DNA from: Eledone cirrhosa
Lineage: Eukaryota
Direction of reading: 5' to 3'
DNA length: 64,000 nucleotides
Assembly (NCBI GenBank): GCA_964016885.1
Contig: OZ024747.1
Span: 33,046,001 to 33,110,000, forward strand
A model generated the notes under the pieces. It did not search any database and was not told the DNA's origin. It worked only from the letters and a program-made list of their open reading frames with translations. Position numbers and translations under genes: made by a program. The stretch's first letter is position 1. Each line of letters starts with the position of its first letter. Below are positions 24,790-60,012 of the stretch, piece by piece.

Positions 24790-27311
24790 AACCATGTTAA
24801 GGCTGTGCACGGCAGTGGGGTGGCTAGAGTGGACATGTGTGAGAATCCCACGACCGTCATAAAGCAATCGCACAACAGGAAAAAAACCGGATGTCGCATC
24901 TCAGAGTTGCCACACTTAATGTTGGCACTCTAACAAGTCGATCTGGTGAGATTGCAGAGATGCTGGAGAGAAGGCATGTGGTTGTGTGCTGTGTGCTGTG
25001 TGCAAGAGGTACGATGGAGAGGTGCCTCTGCAAGACTAATCGCAGTCAAACATCGTAGTTATAAGCTTTTCTGGGTGGGTAATGATGATGAGTTGGCATA
25101 TTACTGGCTGAGAGATGGATCAATAAGACAATAGAGGTAGTAACAGAATAATTAAGATTAGATTAGTTGTAGGCAAGAGACAACTGACAATCATTTCTAC
25201 CTATGCTCCCCAGGCAGGCCTAGGTAAAGAAGACAAAGACTGCTTTTACGAGCAACATTTACAAACAGCCTCAATGACAGAGGACAGAGACATCGTTATG
25301 CTAGCAGGGGACTTCAATAGACATGTTGGGCAACTCCAGCATGGATACACTGGGGTACATGGTGGGCACGGTTACGGCTCAAGAAATGAAGAAGGGGTGA
25401 GACTTCTTGAATTTTGTTATGCAAATACACTAACCATTTGCAACACTAACTTCCAAAAGCCTACCAACCACCTAATAACCTACAAAATAGGCGAGCACAT
25501 AAGCCAGATTGACTTCCTGCTAGTTAGACAGCGAGACAGACGGAGGGTGTCAAATACTAAGGCTTATCCTGGGGAAGAATGTACCCCAGTGCATAGGTTA
25601 GTCGTTAGTGACATCTCAGTAAGCAAAAGAAATAATGAGACATACAGGAAGGTGTGGAAAAGAAAGGTCTGGAAGCTAAAAGACCTTTCATTAAAATATA
25701 AATTTAGCAAAGCCCTTCAAGATGTGTACGACGAAAAAAAAAGACGATTTAGAGTTGTATGACATAGATGATAACTGGAATTTCTTGCGTGACAACTTAC
25801 TGCAGGCTACTGAAGAAACTTGTGGTTGGGGCAGAGCTTCCACCAGACAGAGAGTGACCTGGTGGTGGAACAGCACAGTAGATAAGGCCATTAGAGACAA
25901 AAGACTGGCATGGAAAGCTTGGAAAAATGGTGGGAGTAGAGACGGATACACAGCCGTTAAGGGAAAAGATAGACGTCAGGTGTACTTAGCACGCAGGGAG
26001 GCGGAGAGTAGAAGGTTTGCCAATGTCCTGCGACGGGAAAATCAGAGACGTGCGGTGTTCCGCATTGCAAGGCAGTGTGTCAGTGAAAATCAGAATGTTG
26101 TTGGAGATAAGTGTGTCCGAAATTATACTGGTGTACTTAGTGTCACGAATGATCAAAGAAGGAGGCCTGGAAATGTCATTATGAGAGACTGATGAATCTA
26201 GAGAACGAATGGGACAGAGGGGAATTACATCCCAGTAGACTCGACAGAAGGACCAGCTATTGAGATTGACGAATATAGGGTACAAGAGGCATTTAAGGAA
26301 ATAAAGAATAGTAAGGCTGCTGGACCGTCAGAGATAGTTGCTGAGATGCTGAAGGCTTCAGAAGTAGGCACTAAACTAGTTGCACGCATCATTAATCAAG
26401 CTATATATGGTAGTGTCATACCCAAAGACTGGTGCAGCAGTATTCTCATAAATTGTTACAAAGGTAAAGTGGATGCGCTAGAGAGGAGGAATTATAAGGC
26501 ATAAAGCTGATGGATCAGGTTATGAAAGTGGTAGAGAGAATATTAGCGCAACTGATTAGAGAAAGGGTCAATTTAGATGAGATGCAGTTTGGTTTTGTGC
26601 CTCGGAAAAGTACAACAGATGCCCTCTTCATAGTGAGGCAACTACAAGTGAGGTTCTTAGAGAAAAATAAGCCTCTATACTTAGTTTTGTTTACCTAGAG
26701 ATGGCCTTTGATAGGGTACCCAGATCTGTCATCTGGTGGTCCCTAAGGAAACTAGGGCTAGAGGAATGGCTTGTGAGGACAGTGCAAGCTATGTACAGGG
26801 GTTCTGTCAGTAAAGTGAGAATAGGAATGGAGTTTAGTGAGGAATTCCAGATACAAGTAGGTGTACCTCAGCCCAGTGTTGTTCATTATAATGCTCCAAG
26901 CCATAACAGAGGAGTTTAAGACTGGATGCCCATGGGAACTTCTTAATGCTGATGATCTGGTTCTTATAGCAGAATCAGTAGACGAGCTAGAGAATAAATT
27001 CTGTCTATGGAAATAGCAGTTGGAATCAAGAGGCCTGAGAGTGAATATAACTAAAGCAAAGGCGTTGATAAGTAGAAGAGAAGACAATACTCTGATTCCA
27101 TCAGGGAAATGTCCATGTTCGATATGTAGGAAAGGAACTGGCATAAATTCCATAAAATGTATGCAATACAGATCTTGGGTACCCAAGAGATGTAGTAGGC
27201 AAACTAACAGGTAGGGAAAACTACGTATGCAGTAGATGTACAGGGAAAGTTGGTAGTAGTAATCGATGTGACAGACTCATTTTTTCAATGCAGGTGGGTT
27301 CTATATCAGTG
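24790..27311 (+). mobile_element. RTE-clade LINE (second subfamily), EN plus RT, 3'-truncated
   Basis: ORFs 25274..25762 (AGDFN, SQIDF), 25722..26192 (TWWWN), 26510..26698, 26701..26919, 27020..27214; closely similar to 19916-22100 in opposite orientation. Confidence 0.93.
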
Positions 27312-35212: not shown

Positions 35213-35959
35213 ACCGAAAACGATAAACGGAAAAAAATGAAACGAAATTTCATTTCTCACTTCTTCCTTTGTCTGGGTTGAAGAAATGCGCAACGATGGT
35301 TGCTAGACACTGTACGGCTTAATTCGGGATGTTTGTTTACAAACACACCGAGCATTATAATAAATGTTCGGTGAATCCATACGTACATATATATATGTGT
35401 GCATGTATGTATATATATATATATACATACTACTGTACGTCTGTATACATATATGTATGTACGTATACATACTTATATTTAAGTAACAGCCGTACTAAGA
35501 GTGAGAAATGAAATTTCGTTTCATTTTTTCCGTTTATAATTTTCGGTACCCCGGCCTATTAACTCACTCAATATACAAATTAGACTGCTCAGCCGTTAAT
35601 ATGCATAAGGAAAGTATATACTTTCAGACGTTCAATCATCAGGCAGGAAGGTATACGTTGCTGACGATAGCTAATAAGCTATAACTAGTACAGCGTTCCT
35701 TTGTCAGGGTTGAAGAAATGAGCGACGATGGTTGCTAGACACTGTACGGCTTAATTCGGGATGTTTGTTTACAAACACACCGAGCATTATAATAAATGTT
35801 CGGTGAATCCATACGTACATATATATATGTGTATATGTATGTATATATATATACATACTACTGTACGTCTGTATACATATATGTATGTACGTATACATAC
35901 TTATATTTAAGTAACAGCCGTACTAAGAGTGAGAAATGAAATTTCGTTTCATTTTTCCC

Positions 35960-35965
<6 letters not shown>
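35213..35965 (+). mobile_element. H6 unit: partial tandem (period about 432 bp) with short 5' inversion and degenerate HHR at 35655-35696
   Basis: 35267-35537 repeats at 35699-35965; 35213-35261 is an inverted copy of about 35499-35547; ACGTTG-CTGACGA-TAGCT aata AGCTA-taa-ctag-TA|CAGCGT (GAAA damaged). Confidence 0.75.
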
Positions 35966-36005
<40 letters not shown>

Positions 36006-36023
36006 CTATATATATATATATAG

Positions 36024-36101
<78 letters not shown>

Positions 36102-36163
36102 TGGGATATATGTGTCTGCATGTGTGTATGTATGTCTGTATTTGTATGTGTATGTATGTATAC

Positions 36164-36585
36164 CCTGGCAAAGAGCGGAAAAAACAAAGATAATACGTCA
36201 TTATTTGGAGCGGTGAAAACAATTACACGCAAAGACAAAACTACGTTTATGGTATAAATGAAGTCGTAGAATAATATTCTATTAGGTGGTTCGTGGAGAC
36301 GATCTCTGGCAATGAACGTGGAAAACCAAAGATAATACGTCATTCTGTGGAGCGTGGAGAACAATTACACGCAAAGAAGAAACCACGTTTATAGCATAAC
36401 TGAAGTCGTAGACTAAAATTCTATTCAGGAAACCGAATGATTCTCGGCTTCAGAGTTAAGAATAATGTAAATAAATTACAGAGGTAATTGAAATCAACAA
36501 AAATTAATTGTTTTCCTCGCTCCAAATAATGACGTATTGTCTTCGTTTTTTCCCGTTCTTTGCCAGGGAACGTTTCCACGAACCA
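36164..36585. repeat. About 142-bp unit in tandem (36164, 36306) plus inverted partial copy (36505-36585)
   Basis: CAAAGATAATACGTCATT.T.TGGAGCG..GA.AACAATTACACGCAAAGA shared between copies. Confidence 0.8.
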
Positions 36586-36818
36586 ACATATCGTCTTCCT
36601 GTCTTCCTTCGGTTGCAACGTTTTTCGAAATATTTACTTCTGCGTTCACAGATTGATTTTTTAGTTTCAGAAGATCCCGTTAAGGATGAAAGCCGATTCT
36701 TTGCTTCCACTTTAATCTGTTATTTTAATAAATATTTGCTCTACGGTTCTTATATATTTGATATATATTTATCCTCATCGATCCCTCTTTGGATTTTAGT
36801 CTTCCAATTTATTATTAT

Positions 36819-36876
<58 letters not shown>

Positions 36877-36904
36877 AAACATAAACGAACTAAGGAAAAC
36901 ATTA

Positions 36905-37643
36905 GAAATAAGTGGGATCAGATGTTGTTTACTCGAGAGAAGGCTACGTTGGTATGGTCACGTGATGCGCATGAAGGACGATAGCTGTATAACAAAGTGC
37001 AGGGCAATAAAGATAGACGGTAGCCACGGAATAGGCAGACCCAGAAAAACCTGGGACGAGCTGATAAATTCCGACCTCACACACTTACACCTCACCAAGA
37101 CAATGTCACTGGACAGAGAACTTTGGCGGTACTCAGTAATAGAGAAGACCCGCCTTAACTAAATACAAAGTAAAACCTACTACAGTCAGTAGGCATCTCT
37201 AACAAAATACACCCCCGTCCCACCCACCCCACCCCATCCACACTGCCCCTTTCAATGTAAAGTTATGTTGGTGCCACAACATCCAGGCCTAAACAAATGA
37301 GATCGTGTAGTGTCACGTCAAAAAACACACAGTTCACGCTGTAATGTGGCCGTGTAGGCAATACGGTAAAAACCTCCCAGCCCCACACTGTAAATGTGGT
37401 TGGTGTTAGGAAGGGCATCCAGCTGTAGAAAACCCGCCAGACAGTCCACGCTGTAATGTGGCCGTGTAGGCAACACGGTAAAAACCTCCCAGCCCCACAC
37501 TGTAAATGTGTTTGGTGTTAGGAAGGGCATCCAGCTGTAGAAAACCCGCCAGATAGTCCTATGCGAGCAAGATAATCACTCTTGCCTCAAGTGGGAAAAC
37601 CCCCGTCCAAACCCATGCAAGCGTGGAACACGGACGTTAAACG
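36905..37643 (+). mobile_element. 5'-truncated RTE LINE 3' end with a 121-bp tandem duplication in the 3' UTR
   Basis: RLRWYGHVMRM..DSCI.KC...GRPRKTW, matching 15522-16157; repeat 37326-37444 / 37447-37553. Confidence 0.9.
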
Positions 37644-37752
37644 CTTATTATAGCGCCCGCTTTGTTCGTTTGTAAACAAACTGAACAGCCTGAATTTATG
37701 CCGCACGGTGTTAAGGCAACCACGTCACCTTTTGTTCAACACTGACACAGGA

Positions 37753-37795
37753 ACGATGTACTAGTTTCAAGCTTGTTAGCTATCATCAGAACCGT
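37753..37795 (-). ncRNA. Type I hammerhead motif, family H6
   Basis: Minus strand ACGGTt-CTGATGA-tAGCT aaca AGCTt-GAAA-ctag-TA|cATCGT. Confidence 0.78.
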
Positions 37796-37932
37796 ATACC
37801 CATCTGCCAGATAGTTGAACGTTCGAAAGTATATACTTTCCTTATGAAAATTAACGGCCGAGCAGCCTAATAATAAGCAGCCTATAATAAGCGTCCGCTA
37901 AACTGATACGTACATATATGTATGTGTACCTG

Positions 37933-38000
<68 letters not shown>

Positions 38001-38236
38001 TGCTACTGTACGTCTGTATACAGATATGTATGTACGTATACATACATACTTACATTTAAGTAAGTGCCGTACTAAGAGTGAGAAATGAAATTTGGTTTTC
38101 ATTTTATTACAACTCATCGCCTTCGGTGCGCCTGACCGATTTAACTCACTCGATATGCAAATTAGGCTGCTCAGCCGTTAATTTTCATAAGGAAAGTATA
38201 TACTTTCGAACGTTCAACTATCTGGCAGATGGGTAT

Positions 38237-38279
38237 ACGGTGCTAATGATAGCTAACAAGCTTGAAACTAGTACATCGT
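38237..38279 (+). ncRNA. Type I hammerhead motif, family H6 (G5A damaged core)
   Basis: ACGGTG-CTaATGA-tAGCT aaca AGCTt-GAAA-ctag-TA|CATCGT. Confidence 0.7.
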
Positions 38280-38430
38280 TCCTGTGTCAGTGTTGAACAA
38301 AAAGGTGACGTGGTTGCCTTAACACCGTGCGGCATAAATTCAGGCTGTTCAGTTTGTTTACAAACGAACAAAGCGGGCGCTATAATAAGCGTCCGCTAAA
38401 CTGATACGTACATATATGTATGTGTACCTG

Positions 38431-38518
<88 letters not shown>

Positions 38519-38671
38519 TGCTACTGTACGTCTGTATACATATATGTATGTACGTATACATATATGTATGTACGTATACATACATACTTACATATAAGTG
38601 CCGTACTAAGAGTGAGAAATGAAATTTCGTTTTCATTTTATTACAACGTATATATATTTATATATATATAT

Positions 38672-38813: not shown

Positions 38814-38890
<77 letters not shown>

Positions 38891-39105
38891 GTTAAAAATG
38901 TACATCCACATATGTATACTGAAATACTAGTATGCATATGAATACACACACGTATACATATGTAGATGTACCGAGTTTTTCACTGGTCACTTTACTGTGA
39001 GTGTCCAGCTATTCTGTATGTAAACACACAGACAAACCGGTTTTTAGAGTCATACTGGTTTTTGAGGAAACACCTTTCCTCTATTCTCCAGAAAGCCAGA
39101 CAAGG

Positions 39106-39150
39106 AATATTGAACTAGTTTCGTTGTTGTTACAACTCATCAGCAATATT
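39106..39150 (-). ncRNA. Type I hammerhead motif, family H5
   Basis: Exact reverse complement of 39908-39952. Confidence 0.85.
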
Positions 39151-39907
39151 TACCTATCTTCCGGCCTTTCTAGAGAATCGTAAAAGCACATATCGTTATA
39201 TGCTTTTTCTATGAAAATTAGTAGTGGGCAGACTAATTTGCATAGAGCGTGAGTACGTACCGGTTCAACGGAGACGATAAAAACAAATAACGAAACGAAA
39301 TTAAATTTCGTTTCGTTTGTAACTCACTTTTGTATGACTGACGCTTAAACAATTAAGTTAAAAATGTACATCCACATATGTATACTGAAATACTAGTATG
39401 CATATGAATACACACAAATTAGTCTGCCCACTACTAATTTTCATAGAAAAAGCATATAACGATATGTGCTTTTACGATTCTCTAGAAAGGCCGGAAGATA
39501 GGTAAATATTGAGGAAAGGTGTTTCCTCAAAAACCAGTATGACTCTAAAAACCGGTTTGTCTGTGTGTTTACATACAGAATAGCTGGACACTCACAGTAA
39601 AGTGACCAGTGAAAAACTCGGTACATCTACATATGTATACGTGTGTGTATTCATATGCATACTAGTATTTCAGTATACATATGTGGATGTACATTTTTAA
39701 CTTAATTGTTTAAGCGTCAGTCATACAAAAGTGAGTTACAAACGAAACGAAATTTAATTTCGTTTCGTTATTTGTTTTTATCGTCTCCGTTGAACCGGTA
39801 CGTACTCACGCTCTATGCAAATTAGTCTGCCCACTACTAATTTTCATAGAAAAAGCATATAACGATATGTGCTTTTACGATTCTCTAGAAAGGCCGGAAG
39901 ATAGGTA

Positions 39908-39952
39908 AATATTGCTGATGAGTTGTAACAACAACGAAACTAGTTCAATATT
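39908..39952 (+). ncRNA. Type I hammerhead motif, family H5
   Basis: AATATTG-CTGATGA-GTTGT aaca ACAAC-GAAA-ctag-TT|CAATATT; perfect 7-bp stem I, 5-bp stem II, AACTAGTT palindrome. Confidence 0.87.
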
Positions 39953-40274
39953 CCTTGTCTGGCTTTCTGGAGAATAGAGGAAAGGTGTTTCCTCAAAAAC
40001 CAGTATGACTCTAAACACCGGTTTGTCTGTGTGTTTACATACAGAATAGCTGGACACTCACAATAAAGTGACCAGTGAAAAACTCGGTACATCTACATAT
40101 GTATACGTGTGTGTATTCATATGCATACTAGTATTTCAGTATACATATGTGGATGTACATTTTTAACTTAATTGTTTAAGCGTCAGTCATACAAAAGTGA
40201 GTTACAAACGAAACGAAATTTAATTTCGTTTCGTTATTTGTTTTTATATATATATATATAAATGTATATATATT

Positions 40275-40311
<37 letters not shown>

Positions 40312-40605
40312 AATTGTACATCTATGTATATGTGTGTGTGTGTACGTGTGTATATATGTATATATAGGTGTACGTATGATTATATATGTGTGTGTGCGCC
40401 TGTGTATGCATGAGAGCGTGTGGGTGTATGTGTGTGTGTATATATATATATAGAGAGAGGGAGGATAACAATTGTTAGACCGTAAATAAATCTCCTTTTT
40501 TGTACTGTTGACCATGTTATTCTCCACTTTTTCAATTATATATATATATTTGTGTGTGTATGTATATGTATATATATATAAAATATATATATATATATAT
40601 ATATG

Positions 40606-40684
<79 letters not shown>

Positions 40685-41256
40685 ATATATTTGTATATGT
40701 GTATGTGTATGTATATGTCTATATGAATACGTATGTATGTAAACACATATATGTATATGTGTATGTATATATTTGTATGTATGTATATGTCTATACGTAC
40801 CATTATATATGTTTGTTGTGTGTGTGCCTGCCTGTGAGTGAGTGCGTGTATGTGTATGTACGTGTGTAAGTGAGCCCGTGTGTGAATGTGTTTGTCGACA
40901 CCTGAATCCAACAAATGAATCTGTTGATGGAACCCTTTCTGCCTTTGTCACCCTTAAAGATTTATCTTCTAAATAATTTGCCTTTTCTTTAAACCATTGA
41001 ACCCCACCCATCCTGTAGACACCTGTTTTACAGCCATTGTTACTTTAAGTGATAAACAAGGATTGGTATTCCAATTTTGAACTTGTTTACAGTATTCTTT
41101 CTGCTTTTGTTAATTTTAGAACTTTAAAGAATTAGCTTTTAATGAACTCCCTTTTCTTTAATTCCTTCAACCAATGACCTACACCCATCCCAATCCCCAC
41201 CCTCTCCTACCACCAGAAAAGAAAAGATATAAATACCACCACCCACTCGGACAGCC

Positions 41257-41307
41257 AGCTTCCTGATGATTTCTCACGAATGAAACAGTTCTAGTCCTGT
41301 AGAAGCT
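41257..41307 (+). ncRNA. Type I hammerhead motif, family H1 (in unit 40907-41390)
   Basis: AGCTTC-CTGATGA-tTTC tcac GAAt-GAAA-CAG ttctagtc CTG-TA|GAAGCT. Confidence 0.87.
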
Positions 41308-41727
41308 CTTCTATATTAAAACATTTATCCTCTGCAATGTATTGAGTACTTTACTTACTGTGGCTACCTCTGATTTAACCCGGAATAACTTATGTATATA
41401 TATATAAGTGGTAACAAAATATTGTTATAGGTAAATATCGTTATAGGTTGTGCATACTCTGTATAATGGATAGTTTTAGCGTACGGCGTTGTTTGACTCA
41501 ACAAGAGGTTTACGTAGTTGGCGAGTGTATGATTTCACTTGTATTCCTATATAAGTTTATCTTGGAGTAATATAATTGAAAAAGTGAAGAATAACATGGT
41601 CAAAAGTACAAAAAATGGATTTATTTACAGTCTGACAATTGTTTCACTCATGAGTTGTCTAAACATTGCTGAACACTTGGAGCTCTGCCACTCAATTTCA
41701 AATGCGTTGTTAGCTCAACCAGATCAT

Positions 41728-41802
<75 letters not shown>

Positions 41803-42412
41803 CAATGATATTAATAAATGGAAACTATATTTATAAAACCATATTTATTCTATTATATATATTTCAAAGGTACCAAAACATCAGAAAAAATACAAAGTTT
41901 GTTTTATAAATATTGACATACCCTGGAATGAGACCTTAACAGTTCAAGTTTCGACTGGCGAAACTTGAACCGTATATAATATATATGAATATTATATATA
42001 TATATATATATATAATTAGGGGATGAAATAGGAGTAAGGCGTAACCCGAGAAGACAACTTGACACTGCACACATTACTAGTAGCAGACGACGAAATAAGA
42101 ATATATCTAGAATAGAGGAAAGGTGTTTCCTCAAAAACCAGTATGACTCTAAAAACCGGTTTGTCTGTGTGTTTACATACAGAATAGCTGGACACTCACA
42201 ATAAAGTGACCAGTGAAAAACTCGGTACATCTACATATGTATACGTGTGTGTATTCATATGCATACTAGTATTTCAGTATACATATGTGGATGTACATTT
42301 TTAACTTAATTGTTTAAGCGTCAGTCATACAAAAGTGAGTTACAAACGAAACGAAATTTAATTTCGTTTCGTTATTTGTTTTTATATATATATATATAAA
42401 TGTATATATATT

Positions 42413-42449
<37 letters not shown>

Positions 42450-42743
42450 AATTGTACATCTATGTATATGTGTGTGTGTGTACGTGTGTATATATGTATA
42501 TATAGGTGTACGTATGATTATATATGTGTGTGTGCGCCTGTGTATGCATGAGAGCGTGTGGGTGTATGTGTGTGTGTATATATATATATAGAGAGAGGGA
42601 GGATAACAATTGTTAGACCGTAAATAAATCTCCTTTTTTGTACTGTTGACCATGTTATTCTCCACTTTTTCAATTATATATATATATTTGTGTGTGTATG
42701 TATATGTATATATATATAAAATATATATATATATATATATATG

Positions 42744-42826
<83 letters not shown>

Positions 42827-43398
42827 ATATATTTGTATATGTGTATGTGTATGTATATGTCTATATGAATACGTATGTATGTAAACACATATATGTATAT
42901 GTGTATGTATATATTTGTATGTATGTATATGTCTATACGTACCATTATATATGTTTGTTGTGTGTGTGCCTGCCTGTGAGTGAGTGCGTGTATGTGTATG
43001 TACGTGTGTAAGTGAGCCCGTGTGTGAATGTGTTTGTCGACACCTGAATCCAACAAATGAATCTGTTGATGGAACCCTTTCTGCCTTTGTCACCCTTAAA
43101 GATTTATCTTCTAAATAATTTGCCTTTTCTTTAAACCATTGAACCCCACCCATCCTGTAGACACCTGTTTTACAGCCATTGTTACTTTAAGTGATAAACA
43201 AGGATTGGTATTCCAATTTTGAACTTGTTTACAGTATTCTTTCTGCTTTTGTTAATTTTAGAACTTTAAAGAATTAGCTTTTAATGAACTCCCTTTTCTT
43301 TAATTCCTTCAACCAATGACCTACACCCATCCCAATCCCCACCCTCTCCTACCACCAGAAAAGAAAAGATATAAATACCACCACCCACTCGGACAGCC

Positions 43399-43449
43399 AG
43401 CTTCCTGATGATTTCTCACGAATGAAACAGTTCTAGTCCTGTAGAAGCT
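43399..43449 (+). ncRNA. Type I hammerhead motif, family H1 (duplicate)
   Basis: Identical to 41257-41307. Confidence 0.87.
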
Positions 43450-43869
43450 CTTCTATATTAAAACATTTATCCTCTGCAATGTATTGAGTACTTTACTTAC
43501 TGTGGCTACCTCTGATTTAACCCGGAATAACTTATGTATATATATATAAGTGGTAACAAAATATTGTTATAGGTAAATATCGTTATAGGTTGTGCATACT
43601 CTGTATAATGGATAGTTTTAGCGTACGGCGTTGTTTGACTCAACAAGAGGTTTACGTAGTTGGCGAGTGTATGATTTCACTTGTATTCCTATATAAGTTT
43701 ATCTTGGAGTAATATAATTGAAAAAGTGAAGAATAACATGGTCAAAAGTACAAAAAATGGATTTATTTACAGTCTGACAATTGTTTCACTCATGAGTTGT
43801 CTAAACATTGCTGAACACTTGGAGCTCTGCCACTCAATTTCAAATGCGTTGTTAGCTCAACCAGATCAT

Positions 43870-43922
<53 letters not shown>

Positions 43923-43937
43923 CAATGATATTAATAA

Positions 43938-44853
43938 ACTGCACACATTACTAGTAGCAGACGACGAAATAAGAATATATCTAGAAAAATAACAAGGTTC
44001 AATGCACCGGACTCGAAGCATGTATGCACCAATGTGCCAGGCCTCTTCTTCAGGGCATTGGACGAGTGTTTCCCGGCATCGCACAGATACCACAAAATAT
44101 TCAACCGCCACACCGTGAAGTTCTCCTTTTCCACGGCACCTAACATGGCAGACTACATGGCCAAGGCCAACGGAATGAAAATGAGGACACCCCATCGCCA
44201 AACTTTACAGGCCTCGGGCACATCGGCTGAGGGGAGCGCATGGGGAAGTGGCTAGGGGTTCTGAAGATGTGCTTGGGGTCGGAGCTGTGGCCGTGGAGGA
44301 CGCAAAACTTGACAACAGAGACCAGCAAGTAGTGAACACTCAGTCCACCAATATGCCAGAAGACCATATGAGGACCGGGGAGAACCCAAATAAGACGTCA
44401 GGCCCACATGAAAGGAATGACAAAATGATGCACGGACATGTGACTGCCGTGTAGGTGAGCATTGCCCTCTGCAGGGAATGTGCCTGAGAAAGGGCGTTGT
44501 CTACAGATGTGTGGTTACCACGCAAAATGATAGGCACACCCACGACTTTTAAATCGAGGATATACAACCACAAGACTCATTCAAAGACAGGAACAAGAGA
44601 CACATCACCAGACTGGCGGACCTAATATGGGGACTCAAAGACAGTGGCACGGAGTTTGACCTCAGCTGGAGTATTGTCCAGCGCGCGAATGCATACTCGG
44701 CTGGCGAGATTAGGTGCAGGTTGGGCCTGTCCGAGGCTATGGAGATAATAAAACTAAAGGTTGACGCAGTCATCCTCAAATCTGAACATAGCCTGCAGAC
44801 ACCAACGTAAATGCATGCCCTCCGCTTTAGTGATACCGGATGGGTCTATCTAA
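43938..44853 (+). mobile_element. GC-richer PLE 3' fragment (linker plus GIY-YIG); its 5' piece lies at about 42016-42112
   Basis: RKITRFNAP..KHVCTNVPGLFFRALDECFP.SHRYHKIFNRHTVKFSFS..PNMA, CDCR...CPLQG.C, VVYRC, FKSRIYNH, LADLIWGLK, WSIV.RA.AY. Confidence 0.85.
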
Positions 44854-47026: not shown

Positions 47027-49055
47027 CTAGTGATCGATCGCATGTTGCAAAACTGCACCAACAGCATGATCGAATGCATCAACAGATAAGGAAAGTCGTG
47101 CGTTTGCAACAAGATGGGCAAGGAAGGAAACTTTAGCTATCTCAGACTTGACGGATTCAAAAGATTGCAAGGCATCGGCAGAAAGTGAAATAGGAGCATC
47201 TTTCTTTTTTGGAGCCTTTAAAAACTGTGTCAAGGGGATCAACTTGTCCGCACAGTTAGGAATGAAACGACGATAAAAGTTAATTAATCCCAAGAAATGG
47301 CGTAATTGTTTCAAGGATGTTGGTTGTGCGATATGCTGAATCGCTTCTACCTTAGATGGCAAAGGTCGAATGCCTTCTGAATCTATAAGATGTCCAAGGA
47401 ATTCCAGTGAATCTGTACCAAACACACATTTAGCTGGGTTGATTCTGACCTGGTACCATTGGAGACGTTGAAATAACTGGGATAGATGTTGATGATGATG
47501 TTCAACTGTGTCACTGGCTATCAGGAGATCATCTACGTAAGCAAACACGAAATCCAATCCACGCGTGACTTCATCGATAAAACGTTGGAACGTACTAGAG
47601 GCGTTCCGCAAACCAAAAGGCATGGACAGAAATTCAAACGAACCAAAAGGGGTGGTCACAGCTGTTTTTGGTATGTCTTCTGGATGCATGGGTATTTGAT
47701 GGTAAGCGCGTACCAGATCTATTTTAGAAAATATCTTGCATCCATGCAGAACGGATGAAAAATCATGTAAATTTGGTAGAGGATAACGATCAGGGGTAGT
47801 GATAGCATCAAGTTGTCTATAATCTCCCACAGGTCTAAAATCCGCCTCACCCTTACGAGCCAAATGAAGCGGATATGCGCATGGGCTGGTGGACGGTCGT
47901 ATAAGACCGAGCTGGAGCATGTGCTCGAACTCGTTTCGTGCTTTTTTTAGTCTATCCGGAGCCAACCTTCGTGGACGAGAGAAAACAGGTGGACCAGTTG
48001 TTGTAACGAAGTGTTGATTCGAGTGGGCTGCTTGGGTAGGTTTAAATGAAATATCCGTTAACTCGGGAAACGAAGTAAGGAGTGCATGAAACTGGCTTCC
48101 AGCGGCAGCCACAAAAAATAACGGACTTACAGTAGTAGTGGTAGATTTACGAGTAGGCGTAGATAAGGATGTTGTACTATCCTCAAGTTTCTGGTTCCCG
48201 ATATCTACCAAAAGTGAATAGTGCTGTAAGAAATCCGCACCGAGAATAGGATGAGGTAGGTCAGCAATGACAAAAATCCATTTGAAATCTCGACGCAAAG
48301 CTAGGTCCAATGATAAAGATATCTGTTTTATAGGAGACTGGTTTACTGCATACAAGGAAATACCGGAAAGAGTTGGCTTCGTAGAGTTGAACCAAAGAGG
48401 CCAAATACTGCAACTAAATCCTGTGTCCACCATAAATGATTTGTTTGAAACTCGGCCTCTGATGAAGAAAGCACGATAAGGTGAATTGTTAAGGGAGAGG
48501 TCTGCTGTGTTCATACTCTCCAAACTTAGTTTTTTCGATGCCCCAAAAGGGCAGGGCTGAATACAATGTTTCGCCTTTTCACGAAAACGCATGTGATACC
48601 AACACATAGACGAGTTGTTGGCGGGGAGGTTGGCGCGACGGTGAAAGGAAGAAGACCGACTTCGTGAACGCCATCTAGATGGCGTGCAATCCCTACATGG
48701 TTTAGCTACTTTCCTAGTTAACGCCTCAATGGCTCTCAACATTGAGTCCTCACGAGGTGAAGCAGGCTGGGTTTTGAAAGCAGAAGAGGCAATGACCGAA
48801 TCAGCCGAGGTAGGTTCTCTAGAAAATTCCATAATTCTGTCCGCAGAGGCAGCAATTTGTTCTATCGAACTGGTGTCAACCGTATTCGCCAATATGGTTT
48901 GCACTTTGGTTGGCAAATGGGAGAAGAATAACTTTTTTACGAAGGAACTGTCTTCGGACGCAACATCATTGAGTTCACGGATACGCCGTAAAAACTCTGT
49001 AGGAGTTGTGTCCCCCAGATTTTCCTCCTCTAATAAGGAACGAAATTTACTCTGA
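47027..49055 (-). mobile_element. Ty3/Gypsy gag-pro-RT fragment (open frame), truncated in RNase H; no LTRs or integrase seen
   Basis: ORF 47027..48916: CWYH..F...A..C..PC, VDTG protease, [59 protein letters not shown]. The frame reads open to about 49055. Confidence 0.95.
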
Positions 49056-49254
49056 GAATTGCTGCTTCTACAGTATCCTCAGAGCAGAATGGTTCCATTC
49101 GGTAGAACGGTAGAAGCAGCATTTGAAAATTGAGTTTCTGCAAATAATTACCAATTTGCGCATAGCATGACTAGGCTGTATAACTACTGTTGAAACATTT
49201 GTAAGCACTCGGAATAAATTACCTTTTTATGATGTCTACCTGTTATTATTCATT

Positions 49255-58637: not shown

Positions 58638-60012
58638 TTTCTTTATTAACCACAAGGGTTTACATAAAGTAGACATTAAGGACAGTGCAGGACAATACAG
58701 GACGGTACAAATGGGCATTTCTGCGTGTAAAAAACAAAAACAGAGGATGTAACAAAAAAAATAACAATGAAAAATTCCCCAATAGGGGGGAGACTTCCGA
58801 GGGACATTTGTGGAGAAAGCCCAGTAAAAGGCCACAGTGACCCTGACCACCAAGGCAAGTGCCCTCTCGCAGTTTTCCACCTTTAATTTACAGATACATA
58901 CTCAGAGTAGGTCCATTCACTTGGGCCATTCTTGCTTCTCTCACCCAACTTTCAACAAAATGCTGGGAAGAGAACACTTCCCTCTCTACTCTGATTTTCC
59001 TTCTCAAATGAAATTTGAAAAAGTCAATCAGGGCATCACTGAAGAGGTAAGTGCTCGTCTTCAGCCCTTTCAAACGTGTCCACCATACTATCTCTTTCGC
59101 CATGGCCACCAGACAGATAAAAACTGCCTGCCCTTCCCAGCTAAAGGAAGAGGGCGGGGCAATCCTCACGATGGACTCAGATGATAGCCGGATCCGTCCT
59201 ATACGCGACAGCAGGTGTTCGACATAAACCCACAAGTCAGCAATTTTCGGACACTGGACGAGCGCGTGCAGGACGGTTTCGTCGCCCTGCATGCATCTCG
59301 GACATGCCCGGCTGATGGCACCTCCATGTCTGTAGAGTTTATCCTGAACTGGCAAGGCTCCTCAGTAGCACTGCCAGGCCAGAGATTTCTGGAAGTTGTC
59401 CATAGGCCCAGCCCGAAAGTTCTTCCGAAGAGATTGGCTAGTTGATTTTCGTCGACGCCTAGAGTTTCCCCAAGTATGTTGTCGCTCTTCCCCTCCACTA
59501 ATCCTCTATAGAACGCCGAGGTGGAGTTTCCACCGATCACATTGCCCGATTGGTCGAGGGCTGTGAGCGCCTAAAGACATTCCAGTCTCCAGGCGCTCCC
59601 TCTCGGTCTTCGCTTGACTCAGGACTGCAGCTCCGTCAAGGAAATGAGCTGGGGAAATACGTGTCTAGCAAACGGCGACCACACCTAATCACCGTCGAGG
59701 AAGAGGTGGAGATGTCGTAGCCTGAGCGCGTGTCTGTGCATCATCAGCCTCGGCATGCCCAGCCCTCCACATAGCAGGTGTTGACAACAGATGGACCGCC
59801 TGACCATCGGAGCGCGTCCCTTCCACAAAAAGCGAAAGAGCAAACGCTCCAGCGCATTCAGGCGGGGCTTAGGACAAGGTACGATGGTCAGGCGGTAGCA
59901 GATGACAGACGCGATGTACGCGTAAGCCACCTCTGCTCAACCTTTCAGGGATAGCTTCCTCTCCGCCCATTTCTGGGTGAGAGAAGCCACCCTGCTCATC
60001 ACCTCCTCCCAG
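58637..60012 (-). mobile_element. Tx1/L1-clade LINE 3' fragment
   Basis: WAERKLSLKG, LERLLFRFLWKG...RRSIC....GGLGMP, CPRC...ETVLHALVQC; the 3' end abuts (AAT)n. Confidence 0.85.

Follow-up and report, generated by a model that had tools for sequence, protein, structure and literature searches.

A non-coding hammerhead repeat of Eledone cirrhosa with the insertion anatomy of Penelope-like elements

Insertions of a large and young repeat in the genome of Eledone cirrhosa have the "tail" anatomy of Penelope-like elements: two arms stand back to back, and in 84 of 89 insertions of families A and B taken together there is one start site per arm. The repeat is non-coding, its units carry a type I hammerhead ribozyme, and it is probably a non-autonomous Penelope-like element (non-LTR retrozyme), the monomer RNA of which would be ringed and then copied as cDNA into (TA)n sites by an enzyme borrowed from Penelope-like elements. 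The class is already known and the family probably new to it; a search of the literature returned no report of family A, B or C or of a one-site-per-arm count, though the family may be deposited in Repbase or Dfam.

Two copies lie in the window analysed here, a stretch of 64,000 nt from the 3.0-Gb genome, and a preliminary description had taken them for retrozyme-like units of monomer size. This reading is supported by the non-coding tandem units, the type I hammerhead and signs that one monomer was copied more than once. What had been overlooked are the inversions and fixed 3′ ends as a signature of Penelope-like insertion, which names the likely mobiliser.

Repeat families in the genome

The 427-nt unit of family A contains an intact ribozyme stretch with 5,032 exact matches genome-wide, and the unit of family B, about 466-520 nt long, contains one with 10,122 (reversed control 0 for each), giving more than 15,000 genomic places with an intact hammerhead sequence and bearing out the earlier proposal that the consensus ribozyme is intact. 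Family C, about 66% identical to A, is of low copy number, with at least 34 matches. A motif near the 3′ end of family A has 14,806 exact matches, an excess over the ribozyme that is expected from 5′ truncation. Copies of A are about 94-99% identical to their consensus, and the best B copies differ from the window copy (locus 2 below) by about one base per 280. Of 95 cut-to-cut spacings counted in A, most lie at 420-432 nt, and the fixed periodicity on which the preliminary description had staked its reading is present across thousands of genomic copies.

The longest ATG ORF per unit has 68 codons in A, 63 in B and 50 in C, in agreement with the earlier statement that the units have no ORF, and their GC content is low (34-37%). 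As rings, the units fold better than shuffled sequences (z −8 to −12, 30 shuffles each), partly owing to TA-rich palindromes. Arrays occur in both A and B. Long family A arrays stand at C1:51768000-51797700 (about 50 units) and C1:49581500-49591400 (10 units, 420/422 alternating), with 49 spacings counted across three adjacent 10-kb stretches of the long-array region; the higher-order periods in these arrays are the product of later expansion. The family was also present in four sequencing runs of unrecorded kind, in which the long 3′ end runs into TA and the usual tail of the SINE neighbouring locus 2 was seen. Contigs of two other organisms (runs X4 and X5) hold low-depth pieces of families A and B, derived either from related species or from carry-over.

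The hammerhead ribozyme

The family majority has the type I hammerhead core (CUGANGA / GAAA / UH, three helices, helix I open), unlike the three copies of the two loci first described. Its core is invariant across A, B, C and two variants, and helices I and II change in pairs (5 aligned sequences): 94% of 50 cells are paired, 6 of 11 pairs have changed on both sides, and 0 of 500 shuffles were paired as highly, in a comparison of five sequences with a structure drawn from those same sequences. Such compensatory changes argue for selection on the ribozyme. Helix I, interrupted by internal loops, is about 20 pairs long, and helix III consists of two pairs around an invariant six-base palindrome with a self-duplex energy of −6.8 kcal/mol; a short palindromic helix III has been described as the form requiring a dimer (PMC4209133). 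At the base of helix II (the G10.1-C11.1 site) family C has G-C and families A and B have U.U, which is also present in one autonomous family, the usual pair thus being absent in A and B. A U.U instead of G-C at this position may slow cleavage. No match was obtained in Rfam at gathering thresholds. At the E-value level only family C was matched, to Hammerhead_HH9 (E 5.2e-7; 37.7 bits, below the gathering score of 52), and miRNA-family matches at this level were rejected as TA-repeat noise.

Two ends and two arms

Positions in the unit are numbered from m1, the first base 3′ of the predicted GUA cut. Family A was mapped in 137 loci, 61 of them picked via the ribozyme region and 76 drawn from the 3′-motif matches, of which the first 100 were used, and duplicate loci, the long arrays (L087-L090) and insertions touching locus edges or shorter than 50 nt were left out before counting. 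Back-to-back two-armed structures make up 75 of the 142 family A insertions, and the 3′ ends cluster at m214-217 (short) and m273 (long), about 57 nt apart. After setting aside two-armed insertions with a non-standard, fragmented or cut-off end (16 of 75 in A and 13 of 43 in B), one short and one long end were found in 54 of the 59 A insertions with both ends standard, the others being 3 short-short and 2 long-long (P 1e-11 vs 50%). The same combination was seen in 32 of 34 insertions of the A sample not chosen via the ribozyme, in 30 of 30 in family B (43 two-armed loci among 63), and in 9 of 9 in family C, read by eye from 17 loci with noisier mapping. Between the two ends lies the tail, with a hairpin kept in all three families; it measures about 70 nt in C, compared with about 57 nt in both A and B.

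A (TA)n tract stands behind 163 of 181 arm ends, a raw count not set against the chance frequency of (TA)n, and target-site duplications are unreadable inside such tracts. No poly(A) or simple-repeat tail belonging to the repeat itself was found. Partial tandems, 5′ truncation, an inverted 5′ copy and a one-ended tail with two start sites, which are features of a non-autonomous Penelope-like element, are present. Inverted 5′ copies and the one-ended tail are hallmarks of Penelope-like elements (PMC8557442, PMC3846280), and for Poseidon_Ac it has been shown in vitro that two reverse transcription start sites bound the tail and that both strands are extended (PMC11167929).

Loci of the window

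Both window loci are minority forms and exceptions to the main insertion pattern. They belong to different subfamilies, about 80% identical, and each consists, as had been described, of an inversion followed by about 1.5 monomers: 49 nt and 1.63 units at locus 1 (695 nt, unit of 427), 231 nt and 1.47 units at locus 2 (746 nt, unit of 506). The periods reported for them, about 432 and 497 bp, were measured as 428-432 (anchor spacings of 432 and 428) and 498, with 534 in the second half of locus 2, where TA repeats have expanded. The length of about 1.5 units is, however, nothing special, given that arm lengths are widely spread (48 two-armed insertions; medians 310 and 356 nt).

At locus 1, the outer end of the inverted piece (m283) differs from either usual end and recurs in two further loci (L220 and L056). 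The main arm begins 5 nt past the cut-site equivalent and has (TA)n directly 3′ of it; its position near the cut had been noted correctly, but arm starts fall in m1-20 at the expected number (9 of 195 vs 9.1), so the significance attached to it was that of a chance event. The rare variant C25G is present in both overlapping copies within this arm.

At locus 2, the outer end of the inverted arm (m119) abuts the start of the main arm (m107), forming a continuation-type, twin-priming-like inversion. Twin priming is a mechanism of L1. Continuation geometry within 35 nt was also found in 6 of 13 family A insertions with one non-standard end (P 0.013). For locus 2 it is possible that this geometry stems from a later deletion, because the adjoining SINE is without its usual tail there. 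That neighbour (36875-37643), which we take to be SINE-like, has a 112-bp internal tandem duplication and lacks its (GAT)n tail where it meets locus 2, and the same SINE end stands in three further family B loci (L104, L113 and L279).

Each main arm holds only one ribozyme. The hammerhead copies differ in their lesions, as the preliminary description had it, but the lesion is not single at locus 1, where the GAAA box was lost through a substitution and a 1-nt deletion. In the inverted arm of locus 2 the closing G-C pair of helix I is missing, and each locus 2 lesion is found in 1 of 70 rows among the matches listed, rows that include overlapping loci; a spreading subfamily with G5A was accordingly rejected, this lesion being private. 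With one damaged ribozyme per arm, both loci are likely dead ends, ordinary decayed copies. Elsewhere in the window, an unrelated small repeat, which contains inverted pieces and a tandem duplication of 142 bp, occupies 36163-36585. There are also remnants of an LTR-type RT with RNase H, as well as of the endonuclease, RT and zinc-binding domains of LINEs, at 47030-49078(-), 16849-21475(-), 25127-25759(+) and 58891-59361(-).

A third locus (38885-40247), of family C, lies outside the stretch first described and is a very young insertion. Its arms are 99-100% identical, both its hammerheads are intact, and an additional 97-nt piece stands at the junction. A near-identical local duplication of about 2.1 kb (39971-42100 / 42109-44000) starts inside this copy and is either genuine or an assembly artefact. 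Near 41265 and 43405 there is a hammerhead-like motif from another repeat family, which was also seen in several GIY-YIG loci (L166, L170 and L175).

Table 1. Positions of the repeat copies, their parts and the autonomous elements with long frames (window positions unless a locus is named)
Feature	Position	Strand	Description
Locus 1, short inverted piece	35213..35261	-	family A m236-283, 49 nt; contains conserved tail hairpin
Locus 1, main arm	35264..35965	+	family A, m6, across one cut site, to m273 (long end)
Locus 1, type I hammerhead	35656..35695	+	GAAA box damaged; predicted cut after 35690
Locus 1, tail	35910..35965	+	about 57 nt from short (m214-217) to long (m273) 3′ end
(TA)n microsatellite target, 3′ of locus 1	35966..36101	.	
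Locus 2, inverted arm	37641..37871	-	family B m394, through cut, to m119; 231 nt
Locus 2, hammerhead of inverted arm	37754..37794	-	core intact; closing helix I pair broken
Locus 2, inversion junction	37861..37892	+	14-bp local duplication
Locus 2, main arm	37882..38647	+	family B m107, one cut site, to m346 (long end)
Locus 2, hammerhead of main arm	38238..38278	+	core G5 to A; predicted cut after 38273
Locus 3, inverted arm	38885..39416	-	family C, short end; intact hammerhead, core at 39143
Locus 3, direct arm	39415..40247	+	family C, 466-nt unit, long end; intact hammerhead 39908-39952, predicted cut after 39945
Autonomous Penelope-like element	L161:3809-6622	-	938 residues stop to stop
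Autonomous Penelope-like element	L162:2488-5019	+	844 residues stop to stop
Autonomous Penelope-like element	L163:1775-5062	+	1096 residues stop to stop

Autonomous Penelope-like elements

Two-armed autonomous loci with RT and GIY-YIG for which both ends are listed number four (L142, L163, L172 and L180), and in each a short end is combined with a long one in (TA)n. Several autonomous Penelope-like loci carry minimal hammerheads: those of L142, L172 and L180 have a palindromic helix III and a GUA cut, the family of L161 and L162 has a U3-A8 variant, and no hammerhead was found in L163. L161, L162 and L163 have long frames, two of which are padded by microsatellite, and their products are candidate mobilising enzymes. 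By a single feature, the Cys finger preceding GIY-YIG, the autonomous elements may be labelled Neptune-like, and the closest named relative of a Penelope-like protein from this genome is an Octopus bimaculoides protein (75% identity over 55% of the query).

Neither in the units nor beside the loci was there an ORF with RT and GIY-YIG, the mark of an autonomous element. Among 70 GIY-YIG loci examined (150 listed; 10,596 candidates), no sequence shared with A, B or C was found beyond nested insertions, and we therefore infer the partner from insertion anatomy only. Family C near two GIY-YIG loci (L171 and L303) and family A beside an ORF in L262 were considered as partnerships and rejected, the former being separate insertions into the same TA tracts and the latter likewise a separate insertion.

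Signs that one monomer was probably read repeatedly

Linear monomers cut by the ribozyme can be ruled out as template, since their cDNAs would stop at m1 and do not, which leaves rings or uncut multimers. Indeed, the pile-up of 5′ ends at the cut site expected from such monomers is absent: of 67 unbiased arms, 3 end in the 25 nt preceding the first cut, against 0.11 per 28 nt further on, and 4 of 24 arms stop at the second cut, against 0.14 elsewhere.

Rare variants in family A gave weak evidence, with 19 shared vs 152 unshared in tandem pairs (many from long arrays) and 11 vs 283 between arms, against a control of 15 shared vs 7,639, which is why family B, a younger one, was tested in the same way. 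Its 48 loci fall into 19 majority haplotypes by 16 lineage markers; conflicting markers were met at 8 of 483 sites inside an arm and at 4 of 343 when the two arms were compared, while between loci the figure is 39%. A rare variant is common to both arms in 12 of 33 two-armed B loci. Sites covered by at least three units yielded 148 rare variants: 119 occur in a single unit, 14 in some of the units (one array accounts for 7 of these) and 15 are fixed in every unit, the last at 8 of 40 loci. Three of the fixed ones belong to L306, where each is carried by 7 of 7 units spanning both arms. A variant that arose once and is present in every unit across an inversion implies a one-monomer bottleneck, as repeated copying of a ring provides. 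In family A, an exact-pattern search found C25G in only four places: two are the tandem copies of locus 1 and two the arms of L281. The L281 arms share five more variants that are missing from the list of locus 1 or lost in its damaged core.

The fixed rare variants, together with read-through of the cut site, point to one monomer read repeatedly, and a covalent ring, a nicked ring held by helix I or sibling molecules from one locus all fit the data alike. Subfamily markers are mixed in 4 of 27 two-armed insertions of A and in 1 of 26 tandem arms of that family, so that two templates or later conversion do occur. These mixed-marker arms speak for an alternative that we consider unlikely, namely that the same Penelope-like mobiliser took uncut linear multimers from arrays as template, the hammerhead trimming some 5′ ends or acting later and no ring being formed. 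Since array units mostly carry private variants (the single ones above), daughters of linear multimers should be mosaics, whereas marker concordance is 98-99% and fixation of rare variants extends to as many as seven of seven units across an inversion. Arrays of dozens of units do exist and could supply uncut multimers, and unprocessed RNA was the main substrate of the anole element in vitro (PMC11167929), but no tandem source of C25G besides locus 1 was found by the exact pattern, a search that would miss a mutated or unassembled source. Read-through fits this alternative equally well; the lack of a pile-up of 5′ ends at any cut site tells against it.

A plausible scenario for the insertion

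In the scenario of a non-autonomous Penelope-like element copied from a ring, loci of at least two units would be transcribed and cut by paired hammerheads, the helix III palindrome needing a dimer, as structure and published homologues suggest. The monomer would then be ligated, or kept as a nicked ring by the long helix I. A Penelope-like GIY-YIG endonuclease would nick (TA)n, the sequence that flanks the insertions, and its reverse transcriptase would begin within the unit, at either of the two fixed UA-rich sites that bracket the conserved hairpin, where the ends are indeed found. The two target strands may be primed one per site, a chemistry that would produce the observed back-to-back arms with a tail on only one of them. 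Each cDNA would pass the cut site, circle the unit and stop approximately at random, consistent with the observed read-through and length spread, and the two would then be joined. At locus 2 the second priming may have taken place where the first cDNA had stopped, and the short inversion of locus 1 may derive from a rare site.

A stricter version, to which we give even chances, is that an asymmetric RT-endonuclease dimer primes the two (TA)n strands at two different fixed sites on one hammerhead-made ring and copies its way around from both, the ring being the true transposition intermediate and the one-ended tail obligatory. Two sets of published results count against the favoured scenario as a whole: with the anole element in vitro, ribozyme cleavage was not needed and the two strands showed no difference in start site (PMC11167929), and 8 of 9 Xenopus dimers did not cleave (bioRxiv 10.64898/2026.07.22.740005). 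Far less probable, and largely refuted, is the view of the repeat as a satellite or SINE-like element that LINE enzymes or DNA-level amplification have spread, with tandems and inversions formed after insertion and the ribozyme a passenger: the LINE RT and endonuclease remnants in the window, the L1-type continuation geometry of locus 2 and the odd-end insertions, and the higher-order periods of some arrays would suit it, but the 3′ ends lie inside the unit at two sites paired one each, as in the Penelope-like elements of this genome, DNA-level duplication can neither complete a partial copy nor fix variants across an inversion, and the repeat has no poly(A) or simple-repeat tail of its own and shows compensatory changes in its ribozyme.

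Relation to known retrozymes and Penelope-like elements

Circular RNAs have been shown for the non-LTR retrozymes of coral, mussel and axolotl, and their mobilisation by Penelope-like elements has been proposed; their units measure 350-390 nt in mussel and 225-245 nt in coral (Cervera and de la Pena 2020, PMC7229834). Like these metazoan retrozymes, the present repeat has non-coding tandems, low GC, one type I hammerhead per unit, thousands of copies and a high degree of self-pairing. Unlike them, it has units of 427-520 nt with an internal TA-rich hairpin, is known from genomic copies, and occurs at most loci as partial copies rather than arrays; fixed 3′ ends and inversions are not described for them in the accessible sections of that report (PMC7229834).

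Recently, a preprint has tied retrozymes to pLTRs, mainly in vertebrates and, in the portion available, with no mollusc sampled (Li, Clavereau, Pollet, bioRxiv 10.64898/2026.07.22.740005). In it, 24 of 57 Xenopus families matched known elements. Non-autonomous Penelope-like derivatives, both those of the preprint and the MRC1-type (PMC8557442), resemble the present repeat in their co-occurrence with autonomous EN+ elements, the type I hammerhead and the partial tandems. The link in the preprint is pLTR similarity, whereas here no similar pLTR was found among 70 loci and the link is insertion anatomy.

EN+ Penelope-like elements with a Neptune/Nematis-type finger (PMC11167929) share with the repeat an internal start at two tail-bounding sites, AT-rich or (TA)n targets, partial tandems, an inverted 5′-truncated copy and a tail at one end. 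In contrast to them, the repeat is without an ORF, and its tail exceeds the 30-40 nt reported. Strict pairing of one site per arm was counted here, whereas the Poseidon_Ac strands in vitro used the same sites (PMC11167929).

Implications

The origin of the tandem and inverted structures and of the one-ended tail is still called open (PMC8557442). Reverse transcription of retrozyme circles by Penelope-like enzymes was proposed in 2014 and 2020, and no demonstration was found in the literature, as far as its accessible text goes. Counts across the family provide genomic support for both ring templates and an asymmetric priming at two sites. Moreover, the family supplies a small, defined RNA (427-520 nt, with two mapped start sites) together with candidate enzymes with long frames from the same genome, so that the copying of circles and the origin of the tail become testable in vitro. 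If an asymmetric dimer does prime on a ring, tens of thousands of insertions would stand as a record of Penelope-like integration geometry.
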